Source: Shigella phage ESh24
DNA: 64,000 nt
Sequence record: ON528734
Reading direction: 5' to 3' (one strand)
Positions 52,117-62,172 of the stretch are shown here, in pieces. Within the stretch, counting starts at the first letter, position 1; each line of letters opens with the position of its first letter. Under the pieces are notes generated by a model that saw nothing but the letters and a program-made list of their open reading frames with translations, was not told the DNA's origin and did not search any database. Both the position numbers and the translations under genes were made by a program.

Positions 52117-52189
52117 TGGGAATTAGCCAAGTTGGTAAGGCATAGCACTTTGACTGCTAGATGCAAAGGTTCGAGTCCTTTATTCCCAG
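52117..52189 (+). tRNA. tRNA-Gln (anticodon UUG)
   Basis: Acceptor TGGGAAT/ATTCCCA, anticodon loop CTTTGAC, T-arm GGTTCGAGTCC. Confidence 0.8.
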
Positions 52190-52190
52190 C

Positions 52191-52277
52191 GCGAGAATGG
52201 TCAAATTGGTAAAGGCACAGCACTTAAAATGCTGCGGAATGATTTCCTTGTGGGTTCGAGTCCCACTTCTCGCACCA
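52191..52277 (+). tRNA. tRNA-Leu (anticodon UAA), type II long variable arm
   Basis: Acceptor GCGAGAA/TTCTCGC, loop CTTAAAA, encoded CCA. Confidence 0.8.
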
Positions 52278-52282
52278 AATTT

Positions 52283-52356
<74 letters not shown>

Positions 52357-52402
52357 ATTTATGACTCGTCGTGAGACGCTCAGTTCTTTATTAGGGACTG
52401 AT

Positions 52403-53011
52403 ATGCATTTTTATCTTTATAAAATAACAAATAAAATTAATAATAAAATTTATATTGGTGTGCATTCTACCGAAAATTTAGATGATGGATATATGGGTTC
52501 TGGTAAATTATTAAAAAGAGCCCAAGATAAATATGGTATAGAAAATTTTTCTAAAGAAATATTAGAGTATTTTGACGATAAAGAATCTATGCTTGAAGCC
52601 GAGAAAAATATTGTCACAGAAGAGTTTTTAAATAGACCAGATGTGTATAATTTAAAACTTGGAGGTGAAGGTGGATGGGATCATATAAATAATTATCCTA
52701 TGACAGATCAGCAACGCGAATTAATTTCATTGGGTGTTAAAAAGGCACATTCTAATGGAAAATTAAAAGGATGGTCTTCAAATGGATTAATGAAGAATGG
52801 CTTTGCTGGTAAAACTCATTCTCAAGAAGCTAAACGTAAAATAGCAAAAGCAAACGAAGCAAAAGTTTCTGTGGATGAAAGAAAAAGAAGAATAGAAATT
52901 TCTAAATTATATGATTTTTCTAAACGTGGCGAATTGTCTAAATATGCTAAGCATATTGGCGTAAGTCATACTCAAGCAAAAAGAATTCTAAATCAAATTA
53001 ACAATATATAA
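52403..53011 (+). CDS. segB: GIY-YIG homing endonuclease (SegB-like) inside the tRNA cluster
   Basis: Start set at MHFYLYKITNKINNKIYIGV (GIY-YIG core; track start 52361 abuts tRNA-Gly with no RBS); basic C-terminal DNA-binding region. Confidence 0.8.
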   Translation: MHFYLYKITNKINNKIYIGVHSTENLDDGYMGSGKLLKRAQDKYGIENFSKEILEYFDDKESMLEAEKNIVTEEFLNRPDVYNLKLGGEGGWDHINNYPMTDQQRELISLGVKKAHSNGKLKGWSSNGLMKNGFAGKTHSQEAKRKIAKANEAKVSVDERKRRIEISKLYDFSKRGELSKYAKHIGVSHTQAKRILNQINNI

Positions 53012-53017
53012 ATATTT

Positions 53018-53107
53018 GGAGGCGTGGCAGAGTGGTTTAATGCACCGGTCTTGAAAATCGGCAGTCGCTCCGGCGACTCATAGGTTCAAATCCTATCGCC
53101 TCCGCCA
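53018..53107 (+). tRNA. tRNA-Ser (anticodon UGA), type II
   Basis: Acceptor GGAGGCG/CGCCTCC, loop CTTGAAA, long variable arm, CCA. Confidence 0.8.
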
Positions 53108-53112
53108 GTTTT

Positions 53113-53188
53113 GCTGATTTAGCTTAGTAGGTAGAGCAACTCACTTGTAATGAGAAGGTCGGCGGTTCGATTCCGTCAATCAGCACCA
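53113..53188 (+). tRNA. tRNA-Thr (anticodon UGU)
   Basis: Full cloverleaf traced by hand (acceptor GCTGATT/AATCAGC, loop CTTGTAA). Confidence 0.8.
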
Positions 53189-53189
53189 A

Positions 53190-53264
53190 GGCCCTGTAGC
53201 TGGAAGGTTCAAGCAAGCGACTCATAATCGCCAGATGGTGGTTCAATTCCACCCAGGGCCACCA
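53190..53264 (+). tRNA. tRNA with CAU anticodon, Ile2 (lysidine) type
   Basis: Loop CTCATAA; anticodon arm GCGACTCATAATCGC resembles the bacterial ileX type rather than Met. Confidence 0.7.
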
Positions 53265-53276
53265 AATTATGAATTA

Positions 53277-53363
53277 GGGGAGTTATCCCGTAGAGGTAGC
53301 GGTGTGGACTGTAAATCCATTGTCATTGCGACTCGGGTGGTTCGACTCCATCACTCCCCACCA
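53277..53363 (+). tRNA. tRNA-Tyr (anticodon GUA), type II
   Basis: Acceptor GGGGAGT/ACTCCCC, loop CTGTAAA, long variable arm. Confidence 0.7.
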
Positions 53364-53367
53364 ATTT

Positions 53368-53443
53368 GGATGTGTAGCTCAATGGCAGAGCGATCGCCTG
53401 TTAAGCGATTGGTTATAGGTTCGAATCCTATCACGTCCGCCAA
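53368..53443 (+). tRNA. tRNA-Asn (anticodon GUU)
   Basis: Acceptor GGATGTG/CACGTCC, loop CTGTTAA. Confidence 0.7.
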
Positions 53444-53446
53444 ATA

Positions 53447-53522
53447 CGAGGCATAGCTCAGAAGGAAGAGCAAGGACCTTCTAAGTCCTAGGTCGTAGGT
53501 TCGATCCCTACTGCCTCGACCA
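53447..53522 (+). tRNA. tRNA-Arg (anticodon UCU)
   Basis: Full cloverleaf traced by hand; loop CTTCTAA; CCA encoded. Confidence 0.8.
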
Positions 53523-53889: not shown

Positions 53890-54230
53890 GAAACCGGGTC
53901 GCTACCGGTAAGTCGTCGGACTGATGTTCCCTGGGTAAGGAATCGTGTTAATAAATCTTTATGATTTGTTGATGCCCTCTTACATCACAGCAGAAACGGC
54001 GCACCGAATTATCGATTCGAGGAAATATCTTTGCCGTAAGCCGAGTAGCGTTTTTGACGGAACGTTCGGATATGGTCGAGATATGGCCTTTTAAAAAAAT
54101 ATTGAGTAGCGTCAACTGCTTAATAACCGGGTTCGAATCCCGGCGTTTCGTACAAACACTTGCCTTAGCAGGTGGAACCCCGACAAGGTTGCCGCAAGGC
54201 TTAGCCCCGACCGAAAGGTTGGGGCTTTTT
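53890..54230 (+). ncRNA. candidate small stable RNA region (T-arm-like hairpin and strong terminator)
   Basis: No convincing ORF; CCGGGTTCGAATCCCGG T-arm-like element at about 54124-54142; ends with a 10 bp GC stem (AGCCCCGACC-GAAA-GGTTGGGGCT) plus TTTTT at 54203-54230. Confidence 0.35.
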
Positions 54231-56905: not shown

Positions 56906-57266
56906 ACCCTTAAAGTATGAATTAAAGCGTCAGATAATTTCTACTGATGTATTAATAGGTCCTGTTATACTCATATCATTTGTAATTCTATTGATTATTG
57001 GAGGTGTTTTAGATGTTATGACTGATATTGATTCTGGCGAAATACTGGTATTAATGCTAATTCTTCCATTAATAGTTCCACTTTTATTAGTACCTGTAAA
57101 TTGGGTAGGATACTGGTATCAAGGAAGACATTATCGTAAACGCGTACGTGATTGGAAAGCACAGTGTGAAAAGATTAAAAAGGAACACCAGCTTAAACTT
57201 GCTGCGTATGAATTTAATGAAATTATGAAATTTGTTAAGGAATCACGATGCAAAAGCCAAAACTAA
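56874..57266 (+). CDS. small two-helix membrane protein (e.x family paralog)
   Basis: Start set at MSKPSMYL (AAGGAATG junction module); two hydrophobic helices; C-terminus ...FVKESRCKSQN. Confidence 0.6.
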   Translation: MSKPSMYLPSKPLKYELKRQIISTDVLIGPVILISFVILLIIGGVLDVMTDIDSGEILVLMLILPLIVPLLLVPVNWVGYWYQGRHYRKRVRDWKAQCEKIKKEHQLKLAAYEFNEIMKFVKESRCKSQN

Positions 57267-57610
57267 ATAAAGTCAAATATTCGCTTCCTGAGTCATTTTT
57301 AATTTTTGCTGTGGCGTTGGCTGCAGCTCTTGCGGGTAGTCTTTTTGGATTGTTAATTGACTGTCTTATTTTAAACATTGACGGCACAGTAAATATAATA
57401 GAAGTTTGGAGTGAACTTCACTATACTAAAATTATTTCATTATTTTCATTCTTTGGTACCATGTTATATTTTCATTATGATAATTTTAAAATAAATTGGC
57501 AAAGAAAAAAAGATTACAAAATACAATTAAAAGAATATAATAGTTACATGTCTCATATTGAAAAAGAATCAATGGAAGAGTTTGTGAGTGATTGTAGGAA
57601 AATCAAATGA
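57248..57610 (+). CDS. small two-helix membrane protein (paralog)
   Basis: 120 aa; two hydrophobic helices; C-terminus ...FVSDCRKIK. Confidence 0.6.
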   Translation: MQKPKLNKVKYSLPESFLIFAVALAAALAGSLFGLLIDCLILNIDGTVNIIEVWSELHYTKIISLFSFFGTMLYFHYDNFKINWQRKKDYKIQLKEYNSYMSHIEKESMEEFVSDCRKIK

Positions 57611-57747
57611 TTTTAAAAACTCGCTGGTATGATTTAGATGATGGGGATGATGGCATTTCAGTTGATAGAGTTGATTGGAATGGTTGTTCCAAAGATATGA
57701 AAAATTTGTTGATTAGGGAGTTTAGAATGGGATTATCAAGCAACTAA
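57607..57747 (+). CDS. hypothetical small acidic protein (46 aa)
   Basis: ATG overlaps the upstream stop (ATGA); not in the ORF track. Confidence 0.4.
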   Translation: MILKTRWYDLDDGDDGISVDRVDWNGCSKDMKNLLIREFRMGLSSN

Positions 57748-57775
57748 GCCATCTATTATAACAGATGATAAATTC

Positions 57776-58077
57776 GTGTGTATTCATAATGGTCGCGCTA
57801 AGTTAACGAACGCTGATTGGTTCACAGATAAAATTATGATTCTGTGGTATATTATTAGTCTTCCTGTGACATCATTCGTATTTTACTTTTTTATAAAAAA
57901 TCCAATGGGCAGAATAGGAGATTGGATTCTTTTAACCATACTTGTTAATATTTTTACAGCAGCAATATTATCTGGGATATGGTACACGTTCATTGAAATG
58001 CCATGGCGGCTACGCAGACAACAAAAGATTTTTGATGAAAAGAAATATACTCAAAATTTAAATAACTTTATCACTGA

Positions 58078-58096
<19 letters not shown>
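57776..58096 (+). CDS. small membrane protein (paralog)
   Basis: 106 aa; hydrophobic helices; C-terminus ...FITECRKLQ. Confidence 0.55.
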
Positions 58097-59065
<969 letters not shown>

Positions 59066-59069
59066 AGTT

Positions 59070-59099
59070 GTTTACTTTCTCCTAAAACTGTGATAGTAT
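59070..59099 (+). promoter_or_regulatory. early-type promoter (GTTTAC, 18 bp spacer, TAGTAT) inside a 7 bp inverted repeat
   Basis: ACTGTGA/TCACAGT flank the -10 hexamer. Confidence 0.45.
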
Positions 59100-59136
59100 A
59101 TTCACAGTTACTAATTAAAATATTTAAAGGAAACAC

Positions 59137-59718
59137 ATGAAAACGTATAAAGAATTTATCGCTGAAGCTTCTGTGGAAAAGGCCAAAGGCATTAATAAAG
59201 ATGAGTGGACCTACCGTTCGGGAAACGGCTTTGACCCTAAAACGGCTCCTATTGAACGGTACTTAGCTACAAAGGCTTCCGACTTTAAAGCCTTCGCTTG
59301 GGAAGGACTTCGTTGGCGTACCGATTTAAATATTGAAGTTGATGGACTTAAATTTGGCCATATTCAGGATGTTGTTGCTAGTAACTTAGACGCAGCTTTT
59401 GTTAAAGCCGACGGTGACCTTCGTCGCTGGAATTTAAAACTGTTCTCTAAACAGAAAGGCCCGGTGTTTGTGCCTAAAGCTGGTAAATGGGTTATTGATA
59501 ATAAATTAGCTAAGGCTGTCAACTACGCTGGTCTTGAATTCGCCAAGCACAAATCATCATGGAGAAGTCTTGATGCAATGGCCTTCCGTAAAGAATTCGC
59601 CGAGGTTATGACTAAAGGCGGCTTTAAGGCAGAACTAGATACCTCTAAAGGTACGTTTAAAGACGCTAATGTTCAGTACGCTTACGCCGTTGCTAATGCA
59701 GCCCGCGGTAATTCTTAA
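59137..59718 (+). CDS. ipIII: internal protein III-like (capsid-targeted)
   Basis: 193 aa; N-terminus MKTYKEFIAEA; position immediately after e. Confidence 0.75.
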   Translation: MKTYKEFIAEASVEKAKGINKDEWTYRSGNGFDPKTAPIERYLATKASDFKAFAWEGLRWRTDLNIEVDGLKFGHIQDVVASNLDAAFVKADGDLRRWNLKLFSKQKGPVFVPKAGKWVIDNKLAKAVNYAGLEFAKHKSSWRSLDAMAFRKEFAEVMTKGGFKAELDTSKGTFKDANVQYAYAVANAARGNS

Positions 59719-59826
59719 TAAAGCCGAGTTCGAACCTGGTAATTGATAAATACAGAAACGGGCAATTCATGTGTGTGAATTGCCTCAAACTTAAAGAATA
59801 AAACTATTTACATTTAAAGGAAACAC

Positions 59827-60300
59827 ATGAAAACATATCAAGAATTTATTACTGAAGCAGCTATTAATTCTCAAATTATTGCTGAATCTTTTACTGATCT
59901 TTTGAAATTTAAAAAAGGACAGAAAATCACTGCTGTATTGGATGATGGTACAGAAGTTGAGATGGATGTGCAAGGATATAATTATGCAGTAGATGGAAAA
60001 CTGTATAATAAATCTCATGCTAAATTTGATTCATTTGACGACTTTGTTAATACAGTTGAAGATGAAAAAACTCGTCGATCCATTGCAACTGGTGATGCTA
60101 AGGTTCTTATGGCACATGGTCATGAACGCATTCGCGCTAAACAGAATAAAATGGGTGAAGATAATTTTGCATTAGTCGGTTATCAATCTGGTAAACAAAC
60201 CTATGGTTATCAGCGTACTGCTACCATGTATAACAAAAATGGTAAAATTGCCTTTGTAAATAGTAAAGGTTCTATTCAGTACGTTAAATCATTCAAATAA
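59827..60300 (+). CDS. internal-protein-like protein (157 aa) at the ipII position
   Basis: N-terminus MKTYQEFITEA; shares the 15 nt upstream sequence ATTTAAAGGAAACAC with the 59137 gene. Confidence 0.7.
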   Translation: MKTYQEFITEAAINSQIIAESFTDLLKFKKGQKITAVLDDGTEVEMDVQGYNYAVDGKLYNKSHAKFDSFDDFVNTVEDEKTRRSIATGDAKVLMAHGHERIRAKQNKMGEDNFALVGYQSGKQTYGYQRTATMYNKNGKIAFVNSKGSIQYVKSFK

Positions 60301-60453
60301 GCAAATAAGAAATATGGGAACAAACTGGACCTCATGATTCTGTGAGGGATTCCCGCCAACCTGTAATAAGGTCGAGCCCAAGTGCGGTAATGGGTAAATA
60401 CAGAAATGGACAATTCATGCGCCACGGAATGGCCCAAACTTAGAGAGAATAAA

Positions 60454-60996
60454 ATGAGAACATTTTTAACTGGTCCTTATCTATCCCTGATGAATGCTTT
60501 TACACACCATTCTGATGCTAGAGTAGAAGAAATTTGTAAGAATGATTATCTTCCACCAATGGAAGATGTGCTCAAACAGTACTGCACACTTCGTATAGAT
60601 GGTGGACGTCAATCCGGTAAATCAATTGCTGTGACTAACTTTGCTGCTAATTGGCTGTATGATGGCGGAACAGTTATTGTTCTTTCTAATACTTCAGCTT
60701 ACGCTAAAATTTCTGCAAATAACATTAAAAAGGAATTTTCGCGTTATTCTAATGATGATATACGTTTTCGTTTATTTACTGATTCTGTCCGTAGTTTTAT
60801 CGGTAATGAAGGTCATAAATTCCGTGGGTTATCGCTTTCTCGTATCTTGTACATAATTGACGAACCTATTAAAGCTCCTGATATGGATAAGATTTACAAT
60901 ATCCATATTAAAACGGTACAACACTGTTGTCGAAGCTATAATGCTGAAACAGGTGAAACAGTTCGTCCTCAATTTTTTGTGATTGGAATGCAATGA
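60454..60996 (+). CDS. small P-loop NTPase (Walker A GGRQSGKS, Walker B LYIIDEP)
   Basis: Start set at MRTFLTG (GAGAGAATAAA RBS), about 180 aa. Confidence 0.6.
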   Translation: MRTFLTGPYLSLMNAFTHHSDARVEEICKNDYLPPMEDVLKQYCTLRIDGGRQSGKSIAVTNFAANWLYDGGTVIVLSNTSAYAKISANNIKKEFSRYSNDDIRFRLFTDSVRSFIGNEGHKFRGLSLSRILYIIDEPIKAPDMDKIYNIHIKTVQHCCRSYNAETGETVRPQFFVIGMQ

Positions 60997-61322
60997 TGAC
61001 AGACACACAGCTTTTCGAATATCTTTATTTTTCGCCAAAAACTATTAAAAATAAATTGGTGAATCATTTTGAAATTTTGGCAAATAACAACATTTTGAGC
61101 GAATTTTATCCCAAGCAATACAAATTACAAAAAGGCGTATTCAAAGGATGCAGAGTTTTGTGCACGGCTCCTAATGCACGGCTAATGAATAAAATTCCAT
61201 ATTTTACCATGGAATTTATTGATGGGCCTTTTAAAGGACTAATCACGCAGAGTTTAATGGCATATGATTCTGAGCCATTTTTAATTAAAGAACAATCTTG
61301 GATAAATTTATTTTCTAATTGA
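60993..61322 (+). CDS. hypothetical protein (109 aa), translationally coupled to the P-loop NTPase
   Basis: ATGA start/stop overlap with the upstream gene. Confidence 0.55.
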
Positions 61323-61329
61323 GGTTTAT

Positions 61330-61692
61330 ATGAAAGCATATCAAATTCTTGAAGGCACGCATAAAGGTACTATTTATTTTGAAGATGGTATTCAAGCACG
61401 AATTATTGTCTCTAAAACCTTTAAAGAGGACTCTTTTGTAGACCCAGAAATTTTCTACGGTTTGCATGCCCGTGAAATTGAAATTGAAACACAACCTACA
61501 GTTAAAATTGAAGGTGGTCAACACCTGAACGTTAACGTTCTGCGTCGTGAAACTCTGGAAGATGCAGTTAAGCATCCGGAAAAATATCCGCAGCTGACCA
61601 TCCGTGTATCCGGTTATGCAGTTCGCTTTAACTCTCTGACTCCGGAACAGCAGCGCGACGTTATCGCTCGTACCTTCACCGAGAGTTTGTAA
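61330..61692 (+). CDS. autonomous glycyl-radical cofactor, GrcA/YfiD-like
   Basis: C-terminal [57 protein letters not shown] carries the RVSGY glycyl-radical motif; the 3' half uses CTG/CGT/CCG codons unlike the rest of the window. Confidence 0.85.
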
Positions 61693-61913
61693 TGGCAAAG
61701 ATAATTATTGAAGGTTCTAAAGATGTGCTAAATGCTTTCGCCGAGTGGTTTAGTAATTCAGGCGAACAGCAATTTAATGAAGCATGGAACATGGGTGATA
61801 TTAATGGAATTTATCCTACGACAGAAATTTCTGTTCAGGGATATGGCATTCATGAACCTATTCGTTTAGTTGAATATGATTTATGCACTGGTGAGGAAGT
61901 CAAATATGATTGA
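61692..61913 (+). CDS. hypothetical protein (73 aa)
   Basis: TAATG stop/start overlap with the GrcA-like gene. Confidence 0.5.
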   Translation: MAKIIIEGSKDVLNAFAEWFSNSGEQQFNEAWNMGDINGIYPTTEISVQGYGIHEPIRLVEYDLCTGEEVKYD

Positions 61914-62172
61914 AGATATTAAAGGTTATAAGCCACATACCGACGAAAAAATCGGTAAAGTAAATGCTATTAAAGACGCTGAAGTTCGTTTAGGACTTAT
62001 CTTTGATGCTTTATACGATGAATTTTGGGAAGCATTTGATAGCTGTGAAGATGATGAACTTGCGAAGAATTACGCCGAAAGCCTCGATCAGTTAACTATT
62101 GCTAAAACGAAACTCAAAGAAGCCAGTATGTGGGCTTGCCGTGCTGTGTTCCAACCAGAGGAAAAATACTAA
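61906..62172 (+). CDS. hypothetical acidic protein (88 aa)
   Basis: Start set at MIEDIKG, overlapping the upstream stop. Confidence 0.5.

Follow-up and report, generated by a model that had tools for sequence, protein, structure and literature searches.

The two spacers that follow the internal virion protein (IP) genes ipIII and ip4 in the window (the whole 64,000-nucleotide stretch of Shigella phage ESh24 analysed here, record ON528734) share a repeated sequence, the second copy of which lies immediately upstream of the gene vs.8. Our analysis indicates that this second copy is probably part of a conserved, structured non-coding RNA element and that the first copy is a decayed and truncated partial duplicate of it. 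The main point is what the repeat copies, namely a stretch of roughly 120 nucleotides (nt) that hundreds of genome records, that of T4 among them, either annotate as protein or leave blank. This vs.8-upstream element is a well-conserved candidate structured RNA that is absent from Rfam. If confirmed, it would give the best-studied phage model a new RNA that is easy to test, and a widespread annotation error would be corrected; T4 would then carry an overlooked small RNA that has for decades been mis-annotated as the start of vs.8. Copy 1 would in turn be a natural example of how such an element is duplicated, cut short and reshaped within a hyperplastic locus, its palindrome having become perfect and its loop inverted. 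The genes and repeat copies concerned are:

59137-59718, plus strand: ipIII, internal virion protein III, 193 aa (phrog_5341 'internal virion protein', E = 1.6e-117), named as it is annotated in T4 and relatives
59827-60300, plus strand: ip4 (IpIV), internal virion protein, 157 aa (PF24183 (DUF7412), E = 5.7e-96; phrog_3155 'internal virion protein'), annotated Ip4 in Shfl2 and PST
60454-60996, plus strand: vs.8, P-loop-like protein, 180 aa (phrog_1488, E = 1.4e-79), start ATGAGAACA
59716-59803, plus strand: copy 1, putative truncated duplicate of the vs.8-upstream element, joined to the TAATAA stop codons of ipIII
60364-60453, plus strand: copy 2, from the loop of helix H1 (TAATAA) of the element through its tail to the vs.8 start codon

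The window belongs to a Tequatrovirus (T4-like phage). Region 59000-60600 had matches in 887 phage records and is 95.5% identical to ECML-134 and 94.8% identical to Shfl2. A repeat search of the two spacers returned a block of 56 nt at 77% identity (59716-59771 versus 60364-60419) and a second block of 17 nt at 82% identity (59781-59797 versus 60430-60446). The whole repeat spans approximately 85-88 nt and is longer than the 60 bp or so that the sequence-only reading had described. That it is real is evident from the Smith-Waterman score of the two spacers, which was 34 as compared to a mean of 9.0 (standard deviation 1.4, maximum 16) in 1000 dinucleotide shuffles, none of which reached 34. 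The longest identical runs between the copies are 12 nt (TAAATACAGAAA) and 9 nt. The repeat sequences and their coordinates had been quoted correctly in that reading, but the true start lies 3 nt earlier, at the stop codons of ipIII, from where the alignment extends to just before the ribosome-binding region of ip4. In the second spacer the repeat starts 64 nt past the ip4 stop codon and ends at the vs.8 start codon.

Copy 2 makes up the 3' two-thirds of an element of around 120 nt at 60316-60437 on the plus strand. The element is predicted to fold into a 5' hairpin, a three-way junction and a tail, and would be carried in a polycistronic transcript just 5' of vs.8. Its predicted parts are:

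60316-60354, plus strand: 5' hairpin domain, GGGAA (60316-20) with TTCCC (60350-54) and CCTCA (60330-34), loop TGATTCTG, with TGAGG (60343-47)
60355-60395, plus strand: three-way-junction core, helix P1 (60355-57 with 60393-95), H1 (60359-72), H2 (60376-85) and 3' junction (60386-92)
60396-60437, plus strand: 3' tail with a small hairpin, GCCA (60421-24), loop CGGAA, TGGC (60430-33)

The 5' hairpin is found in all Tequatrovirus copies, with compensatory changes to CCTTA/TAAGG in locus L046 and to GGGAG/CTCCC in locus L024; its loop is shorter in L048 and L024. In the window H1 reads ACCU, loop GUAAUA, AGGU, followed by the junction CGA, H2 as GCC, loop CAAG, UGC, and the 3' junction GGUAAUG. 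More generally, P1 encloses H1 (ACCU-GUAAnA-AGGU), a junction of 2-3 nt (CGA, CAA or CA) and H2 (G-N-N, loop, N-N-C), after which comes GGUAA. A covariance model scored the window core at 72.5-73.6 bits. Across T4-like genera the 3' tail follows ATG[TC]GCCAnGGAA[TC]GGCCC.

Base pairs were counted in 61 distinct sequences aligned by the covariance model. In this alignment 89.7% of the cells were paired as compared to 76% with shuffled partners and 28-43% with slid partners. Changes on both sides of a pair were observed in 70 cells (20 ± 3 in shuffles), and the covariation score was 0.325 against 0.086 in shuffles and 0.033-0.061 with slid partners. Covariation was seen in two of the three helices, P1 and H2. 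Pairs 12:60 and 11:61 of P1 occurred as CG43/GC9/AU5/UA4 and CG43/GC11/AU7, respectively, and the middle pair of H2 (32:51) as CG47/UA9/GC2; no unpaired cells were found at these positions, nor at any of the four best-supported pairs. The outer pair of H1 was either AU or GC, and H1 was predicted unaided by RNAalifold on the 61-sequence alignment. Compensatory helices on one strand in divergent genomes, as looked for in structured RNAs generally, were found, in helices that are short and in an alignment fitted by the covariance model. An initial RNAalifold model of the core (CUGUA/UGCGG with GGU/GCC) contained invariant pairs only and was displaced by variants from a looser scan, which covary for the H1/H2 fold. 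Mimicry of the 3' end of 16S rRNA by GUAACAAGGU and UGCGGU was likewise discarded: GUAACAAGGU corresponds to E. coli 16S positions 1497-1506, but the alignment score of 10 is that of chance (shuffle means 9.7-10.2, with 227-311 of 500 shuffles scoring as high).

The element is widespread and precedes vs.8 in more than 1000 T4-like genomes. BLAST matches to it were found in 1116 phage records and covered 80% or more of its length in 548 of these. The stretch that begins with GGGAAC (60316) and ends at the start of vs.8 follows denV in T4, ip4 in the window, SA21RB, F1, ADUt and UFV09, and ipIII in the IMG/VR loci L022 and L025. A core of 30-45 nt was furthermore found by BLAST in unannotated gaps of unrelated phages, namely Vequintavirus, the 45-kb phage Ivi and Winklervirus Kc304, as well as in Klebsiella phage KpCHEMY26, phiC120 and Vibrio phages. 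Pattern scans of IMG/VR and metagenomes added several T4-like genera, rV5-like and Ivi-like phages, 46-kb gut phages, a 360-kb contig and others. Besides the window (60355-60395), core loci include L007 1495-1553, L008 1488-1546, L013 5335-5393 (minus strand), L066 12905-12963 (minus strand), L132 6695-6752 and around 60 others; isolates carrying the motif have gammaproteobacterial hosts. As the position upstream of vs.8 is kept whichever of ip4, ipIII or denV precedes it, and as the core also occurs in phages without IP genes, copy 2 appears to be conserved for a reason unrelated to the IP genes. The strict core pattern gave no match in 185,579 bacterial and archaeal species genomes, and a prophage or bacterial origin of the core was rejected on this ground.

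Searches against known RNAs were negative. None of the 4227 models of Rfam 15 (among them tRNA, tmRNA, riboswitches, small ribozymes and group I introns) matched at E<=10 in 60290-60470, in 57000-62000 or in an rV5-like copy, and ARAGORN called no tRNA or tmRNA at the element. The covariance model matched the 64-kb window once only, so that no second core was found in it, the tRNA region included. Literature searches by sequence strings and keywords returned no description of the element, the core motif or a relevant T4 transcript map. Tandem junction motifs, one standard and one diverged (e.g. CCTGTAATAAGGCCAGTCCGCGACGGTAA), were observed at L018 (5087-5143 and 5198-5256, minus strand), L053 (357-415 and 471-527), L110 (9015-9073 and 9129-9185) and L107 (824-882 and 910-967). 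The diverged tandem copies were a source of useful compensatory changes.

In GenBank records the conserved stretch is in many cases given as coding. An open reading frame (ORF) of 33 aa (MRDSRQPVIRSSPSAVMGKYRNGQFMRHGMAQT) at 60342-60443 is a hypothetical protein in ADUt, UFV09, G4498 and vB_Eco_Some, and in T4 and ECML-134 the stretch (60406-60453 in the window) is annotated as the N-terminus of vs.8, which is given as 195 aa in ECML-134; T4 record X04567 has ORF 64.0 with five alternative starts at 2220-2339. That the stretch owes its conservation to this ORF or to an N-terminal extension of vs.8 we find scarcely credible. The ORF is indeed present and two differences between the copies within KYRNGQFM are synonymous in its frame, but its start codon varies between ATG, GTG, CTG, ATA and TTG as the codon falls in one arm of a hairpin, where the changes are compensatory. 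The upstream frame of vs.8, open in T4, is closed by TAG at 60441-43 in the window, the two being offset by 8 nt of indels that shift the frame relative to vs.8. In the rV5-like and Ivi-like phages a stop codon lies just upstream of the core and there is no common ORF, and covariation of the helices accounts for the conservation. Since neither frame nor start codon is conserved, element 60316-60437 is read as non-coding on sequence grounds, and the real start of vs.8 is most likely ATGAGAACA at 60454.

The genomic context of the core offers some indication of how the RNA might be expressed. At 25 loci (23 from non-T4-like phages, the window and one other T4-like phage) the motif is accompanied by tRNA genes, and in 25 out of 25 all tRNAs lie on the motif strand. 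The distance from the motif to the closest tRNA in the 23 non-T4-like loci is mostly 30-600 nt, and tRNAs sometimes lie on both sides. In L132 a tRNA-Ser is followed after 32 nt by the motif and an intrinsic terminator, in Ivi the motif sits between two terminator-like hairpins, and in the rV5-like phages it precedes a good sigma-70 promoter of the next gene. As the core lies within or beside same-strand tRNA clusters, in some cases with terminator-like hairpins, it is read as a small stable RNA or RNA module that would be made together with the neighbouring genes and tRNAs. We see about an even chance that core 60355-60395, with its near-invariant hairpin H1 and junction GGUAA, defines an undescribed family of phage non-coding RNAs, present in T4-like, rV5-like and several further virulent phages with gammaproteobacterial hosts and usually expressed with tRNA clusters outside the T4-like phages. 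Conservation this strict in phages that are unrelated would suggest a conserved partner, of either host or phage origin, and the element probably acts through such a binding partner. The partner might be a factor with a part in phage-host conflicts that concern tRNA or translation, with the RNA acting as decoy, inhibitor or processing module.

In the rV5-like phages the product of the next gene (L007 1678-2016, magaca_86; L044 1269-1676) is a small protein whose N-terminus carries an arginine-rich, AT-hook-like stretch, TKKRRRRGRP. In the 46-kb gut phages (L013, L020, L023, L039, L047 and L054) the motif is flanked by repeats of AGTGCTCTT(A/T)(T/C)CGTTGTG, further copies of which lie close by; these repeats could form a long closing stem by pairing with one another, and they are similar to the rrn/lambda boxA (UGCUCUUUA). 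No homologue of vs.8, vs.7 or the IP genes was found near the motif outside the T4-like phages, and a vs.8-specific cis-regulator was rejected on this ground.

The near-identity of a core of about 30 nt in unrelated phage families could also be explained if the core were a feature of the DNA, that is a small mobile cassette or a protein-binding site spreading horizontally, and mobile promoter/stem-loop cassettes are known in T4-type phages. We consider this very unlikely. The differences in P1 between families are compensatory, a sign that pairing has long been under selection and that the core was not transferred recently. Furthermore, GU is the commonest pair at position 10:62 of P1 and GU and UG occur at 33:50 of H2, G-U pairing being strand-specific, and the orientation of the motif is always that of the neighbouring genes and tRNAs.

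Copy 1 is related to the element from the H1 loop (TAATAA) onward only. It comprises the following parts:

59716-59745, plus strand: junction remnant, the degenerate 3' half of the core
59746-59771, plus strand: well-conserved tail block TAAATACAGAAACGGGCAATTCATG
59761-59784, plus strand: perfect 9-bp palindrome, GGCAATTCA, loop TGTGTG, TGAATTGCC

As copy 1 has no 5' hairpin, P1 or H1 it is unable to form the junction, and core covariance model R1 did not detect it even at E<=10. It is joined at the ipIII stop codons TAATAAAG; T4 has the same stops without copy 1. Relative to copy 2 the junction remnant is conserved at 15 of 23 positions (approximately 65%) and the tail block at approximately 90%. 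Copy 1 of the window is 87-93% identical to that of relatives, as compared to 93-97.5% for ipIII and ip4 and, for spacer 2, 96-98% in ECML-134 and Shfl2, where it has the same length, and around 90% in G4498 and VEc74. These alignments indicate that copy 1 evolves faster than both its flanks and spacer 2.

The clean hairpin that had been noticed in the first copy holds up, with a predicted energy of -14.5 kcal/mol, z = -4.6 and none of 200 shuffles as stable. The counterpart in copy 2 is imperfect (z = +0.3), as it is in other genera. Among 10 phages the arms of copy 1 covary (GGACAATTC/GAATTGTCC versus GGGCAATTC/GAATTGCCT), and those of the window show a compensated A-T to G-C change. The loop is reverse-complemented between near-identical copies, ATGCGTGC in W143 (L056) versus GCACGCAT in TB004 (L059), and a second such inversion was found between G4498 (ATGCGTGT, L060) and VEc74 (ACACGCAT, L062). 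Judged by these sequences, the loop flip would be the signature of hairpin or template-switch events at the level of DNA. The hairpin does not have the form of an intrinsic terminator; on the plus strand the stem is followed by TCAAACTTAAAG and a T-run is present on the minus strand only, the one strand on which the scan called a terminator-like site. A scan of 59719-59826 gave no sigma-70 or T4 early promoter and no GTTTAC within copy 1. GTTTACA in other genera was examined as a promoter and set aside, since it is part of the conserved tail and the -10 is not kept.

A better-kept tail could be expected if copy 1 were a working duplicate of a cis signal, TAAATA(C/T)AGAAA(C/T)GG(A/G)CAATTCATG plus hairpin, by which ip4 or ipII would be controlled in the same manner as vs.8. 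Such a signal might act as a late-promoter-like GATAAATA, in RNA processing or as a translational operator. The T4 late-promoter consensus is TATAAATA, and GATAAATA, found in the copies of the window, W143, VIPECOOM01, JE01, TB004 and Shfl2, agrees with it at 7 of 8 positions. Both copies moreover end 10-45 nt before a start codon, and the tail is close to 90% identical to copy 2 where the junction remnant is only 65% identical. However, G4498-type copies 1 and all copies 2 read GGTAAATA, which agrees at only 6 of 8 positions, no sigma-70-type promoter was found in copy 1, and the equivalent block differs in other T4-like genera (GTTTACATA...). As copy 1 overall evolves faster than its flanks and most relatives are without it, we regard a shared cis signal as unlikely.

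Several observations weigh against reading copy 2 as part of a structured RNA and copy 1 as its decayed duplicate. That the RNA exists, where it ends and how stable it is are all deduced from sequence. The single-sequence fold of the window element is unremarkable (z = +0.5), the initial RNAalifold model showed another fold and was given up, P1 and H2 are just 3 bp each, and the alignment used for pair counts was fitted by a covariance model built on the structure being tested. The patterns used to retrieve sequences mostly required CCTGTAAnAAGG and CGGTAA, and the invariance of H1 and GGUAA is therefore overstated, partly by construction. The T4-like element is 6 kb from the tRNA cluster, which lies upstream in the window, so that the link to tRNAs fails in the window itself. 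Finally, the better-kept tail of copy 1 could reflect a function of its own, and the compensatory changes in its arms could stem from homogenisation of the arms at the DNA level as opposed to selection on RNA.

If copy 2 belongs to a structured RNA element and copy 1 derives from it, the following history can be proposed. An ip cassette carrying its own element would have been inserted after a junction of ipIII with the element, resulting in two elements. The first of these would then have been shortened by deletion between two TAATAA(A/G)G motifs, leaving copy 1 joined to the end of ipIII at an 8-nt microhomology, TAATAA(A/G)G, that corresponds to both the ipIII stops and the H1 loop. Intrastrand template switching would be the simplest way in which the imperfect tail hairpin turned into a perfect palindrome, the loop of which flips between genomes. 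The homology of copy 1 and copy 2 is then a by-product of rearrangement in a hyperplastic locus. Most likely, copy 1 would act as a stem-loop between cistrons by which the ipIII message is protected or in part terminated.

The sequence-only reading had proposed that the repeats, together with the shared leaders, allow IP cassettes to be exchanged by homologous recombination. The leaders in question are:

59122-59168, plus strand: shared ribosome-binding site and capsid-targeting leader, copy one, upstream sequence and first 11 codons of ipIII
59812-59858, plus strand: shared ribosome-binding site and capsid-targeting leader, copy two, upstream sequence and first 11 codons of ip4

In the repeat search (family D2) the leaders are 91% identical over 47 nt. 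Exchange of cassettes is real, as either ipII or ip4 follows copy 1. The order copy 1 then ipII is found in W143, VIPECOOM01-03, JE01 and TB004, and copy 1 then ip4 in the window, Shfl2, G4498, ECML-134, SCS4, VEc74 and ECO07P2. The boundaries of exchange, however, are the leader and the 5' edge of the element and not the repeat pair: homology between ip4 and ipII-denV arrangements breaks off in the leader (approximately 25 nt ahead of the start codon and the first 33 coding nt) and is regained at GGGAAC, where the element has its 5' edge. Between ipIII and the IP gene that follows, the spacer occurs as at least three alleles, the T4 promoter and stem-loop (15-22 records), copy 1, and a 41-nt spacer in SA21RB; copy 1 appears from these sequences to be one of at least three interchangeable alleles. 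Repeats that failed to recur at the IP boundaries of related genomes had been named in advance as what would speak against the proposal, and this is what was found: full-length copy 1 was present in 15 of around 890 related records, corresponding to 12 other phages, with no version more than 91% identical to that of the window. Copy 1 is therefore no general IP boundary.

That the two repeats are direct and bracket ip4, in loci known as hot spots of shuffling, would suit homology arms for exchange or deletion of IP cassettes. Variants shared in a patchy manner could in addition reflect occasional gene conversion, since GGTAATGGGTAAATA of the G4498-type copy 1 and ...ACAG of the window copy 1 read as in copy 2, and ECML-134 has GAAAT. 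We nevertheless find such a role for the repeat pair quite unlikely. Copy 1 is confined to the 12 other phages, the swap of ip4 for ipII-denV is bounded elsewhere, and copy 2 is kept in phages without IP genes. An identity of 77% over 56 nt is furthermore a poor substrate as compared to the 91% of the leader. No recombinant of copy 1 and copy 2, with ipIII followed by a hybrid copy and vs.8, was found among the genomes examined. One candidate recombinant, vB_Eco_Some, turned out to have the order e, denV, ip4, element, vs.8 with no hybrid. Genomes without ip4 keep the whole element and have microhomology junctions. In L022 and L025 ipIII lies directly before the full element (junction ...CCTATTTACATT|CAAATAAAATGGGAAC), which by its sequence looks like precise loss of the ip4 ORF between ACATT in the ip leader region and TCATT/CGTT at the ip4 end, and would be a microhomology deletion and not a crossover between repeats.

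Cassette shuffling at the two IP loci of T-even phages, with promoter/stem-loop elements as probable linkers, is known (Repoila 1994, as described in PMC2839356 and PMC4122927). As IP shuffling and stem-loop linkers are already in the literature, the general idea of the sequence-only reading is right and known, but the repeat pair is not the device; to read it as one would add little. The gene denV was also observed to be mobile. It is located upstream of the IP genes in W143 (L056 1-266), which has an internally deleted remnant at the T4 position (1930-2110), is truncated in TB004 (L059 2288-2652), and lies between e and ip4 in vB_Eco_Some (L156 347-763).

The gene order of the window is nudE (58078-58533), e (lysozyme, 58571-59065), ipIII, ip4 and vs.8, that of T4 being e, ipIII, ipII, denV and vs.8. 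Two consensus T4 late promoters (TATAAATA) are located just 5' of e at 58537-58544 and 58550-58557, and read-through from these could include ipIII, ip4 and the vs.8-upstream element. The spacer between e and ipIII shows the ordinary type of IP-locus spacer:

59070-59109, plus strand: e-ipIII spacer, T4-type early-promoter-like GTTTAC (59070-59075), then a stem-loop
59086-59109, plus strand: stem-loop of this spacer, arm AACTGTGA (59086-59093), loop TAGTATAT, arm TCACAGTT (59102-59109)

This spacer is homologous to 'inverted repeat A/A'' of T4 record X04567, annotated as a potential e terminator and IpIII -10 region.

Known systems resemble the element and its duplicate in part. T4 stable RNA species 1 and 2 are rnaC and rnaD, encoded with the tRNA cluster. 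Like tRNA-cluster small RNAs and theta ribozymes, the core of non-T4-like phages would be a non-coding RNA on the tRNA strand, tens to hundreds of nt from the tRNAs. It differs from the T4 stable RNAs in that the tRNA region of the window gives no match to the core model. That region holds a tRNA cluster at 52117-53522 and, after a gap of 530 nt, a 97-nt 'tRNA-Phe (aaa)' called by ARAGORN at 54057-54153, which given its odd length and anticodon may be a T4 stable RNA (species 1 or 2) and not a tRNA. Theta ribozymes are HDV-like (hepatitis delta virus-like), tRNA-adjacent and found in phages of Bacteroidota and Bacillota (PMC10879173). The motif, in contrast, does not abut tRNA 3' ends, the nearest tRNA being 32-600 nt away, and its hosts are gammaproteobacterial. 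An HDV-like or theta ribozyme was rejected by inspection as the topology does not fit: it needs a P1 3' strand of about 7 nt and P1.1 between P3 and P4, with a cleavage site at the tRNA 3' end, and with only 2-3 nt between H1 and H2 the nested double pseudoknot cannot form.

For copy 1 the correction of quasipalindromes by intrastrand template switching, the Ripley model classically studied in T4 rII, is the closest parallel to the state of its palindrome. The repeat is imperfect in copy 2 (GGACAATTC...GGAATGGCC) and perfect in copy 1 (GGACAATTC...GAATTGTCC), and loops occur in both orientations, although for copy 1 the mechanism would be deduced from the pattern of sequence alone. The 'inverted repeat B/B'' of T4 X04567, annotated as a potential terminator, is like copy 1 a strong same-strand stem-loop about 45 nt past the ipIII stop with no clear U-tract. 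The two are unrelated in sequence; B/B' has 14-nt arms and a -10-like hexamer in its loop, whereas in copy 1 the arms are 9 nt long and the loop is (TG)n or rich in GC.

The closest comparison for the position of copy 1 is with the PeSLs (Arbiol et al. 2010, PMC2839356; Comeau et al. 2014, PMC4122927) and with the elements of T-even IP loci (Repoila et al. 1994, as described in those two papers), which are thought to be linkers for modular shuffling. Copy 1 differs from these in being rare, in deriving from the vs.8-upstream RNA element and not from a promoter cassette, and in having no early promoter of the T4/PST type (TTTACW-N17-TAYWAT), which is present in the e-ipIII spacer and in the T4 ipIII-ipII spacer. 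Of the features by which PeSLs are recognized copy 1 accordingly lacks the promoter and has the stem-loop between variable ORFs with replacement differences; of those expected of homology arms, neither general presence at the IP boundaries of related genomes nor replacements bounded by the repeats were found. Copy 1 shares with PeSLs and IP-locus elements the nature of a short stem-loop module between small variable genes in a hyperplastic region that varies between close relatives, and it sits exactly at the position of the T4 ipIII-ipII promoter and stem-loop, as an alternative allele.

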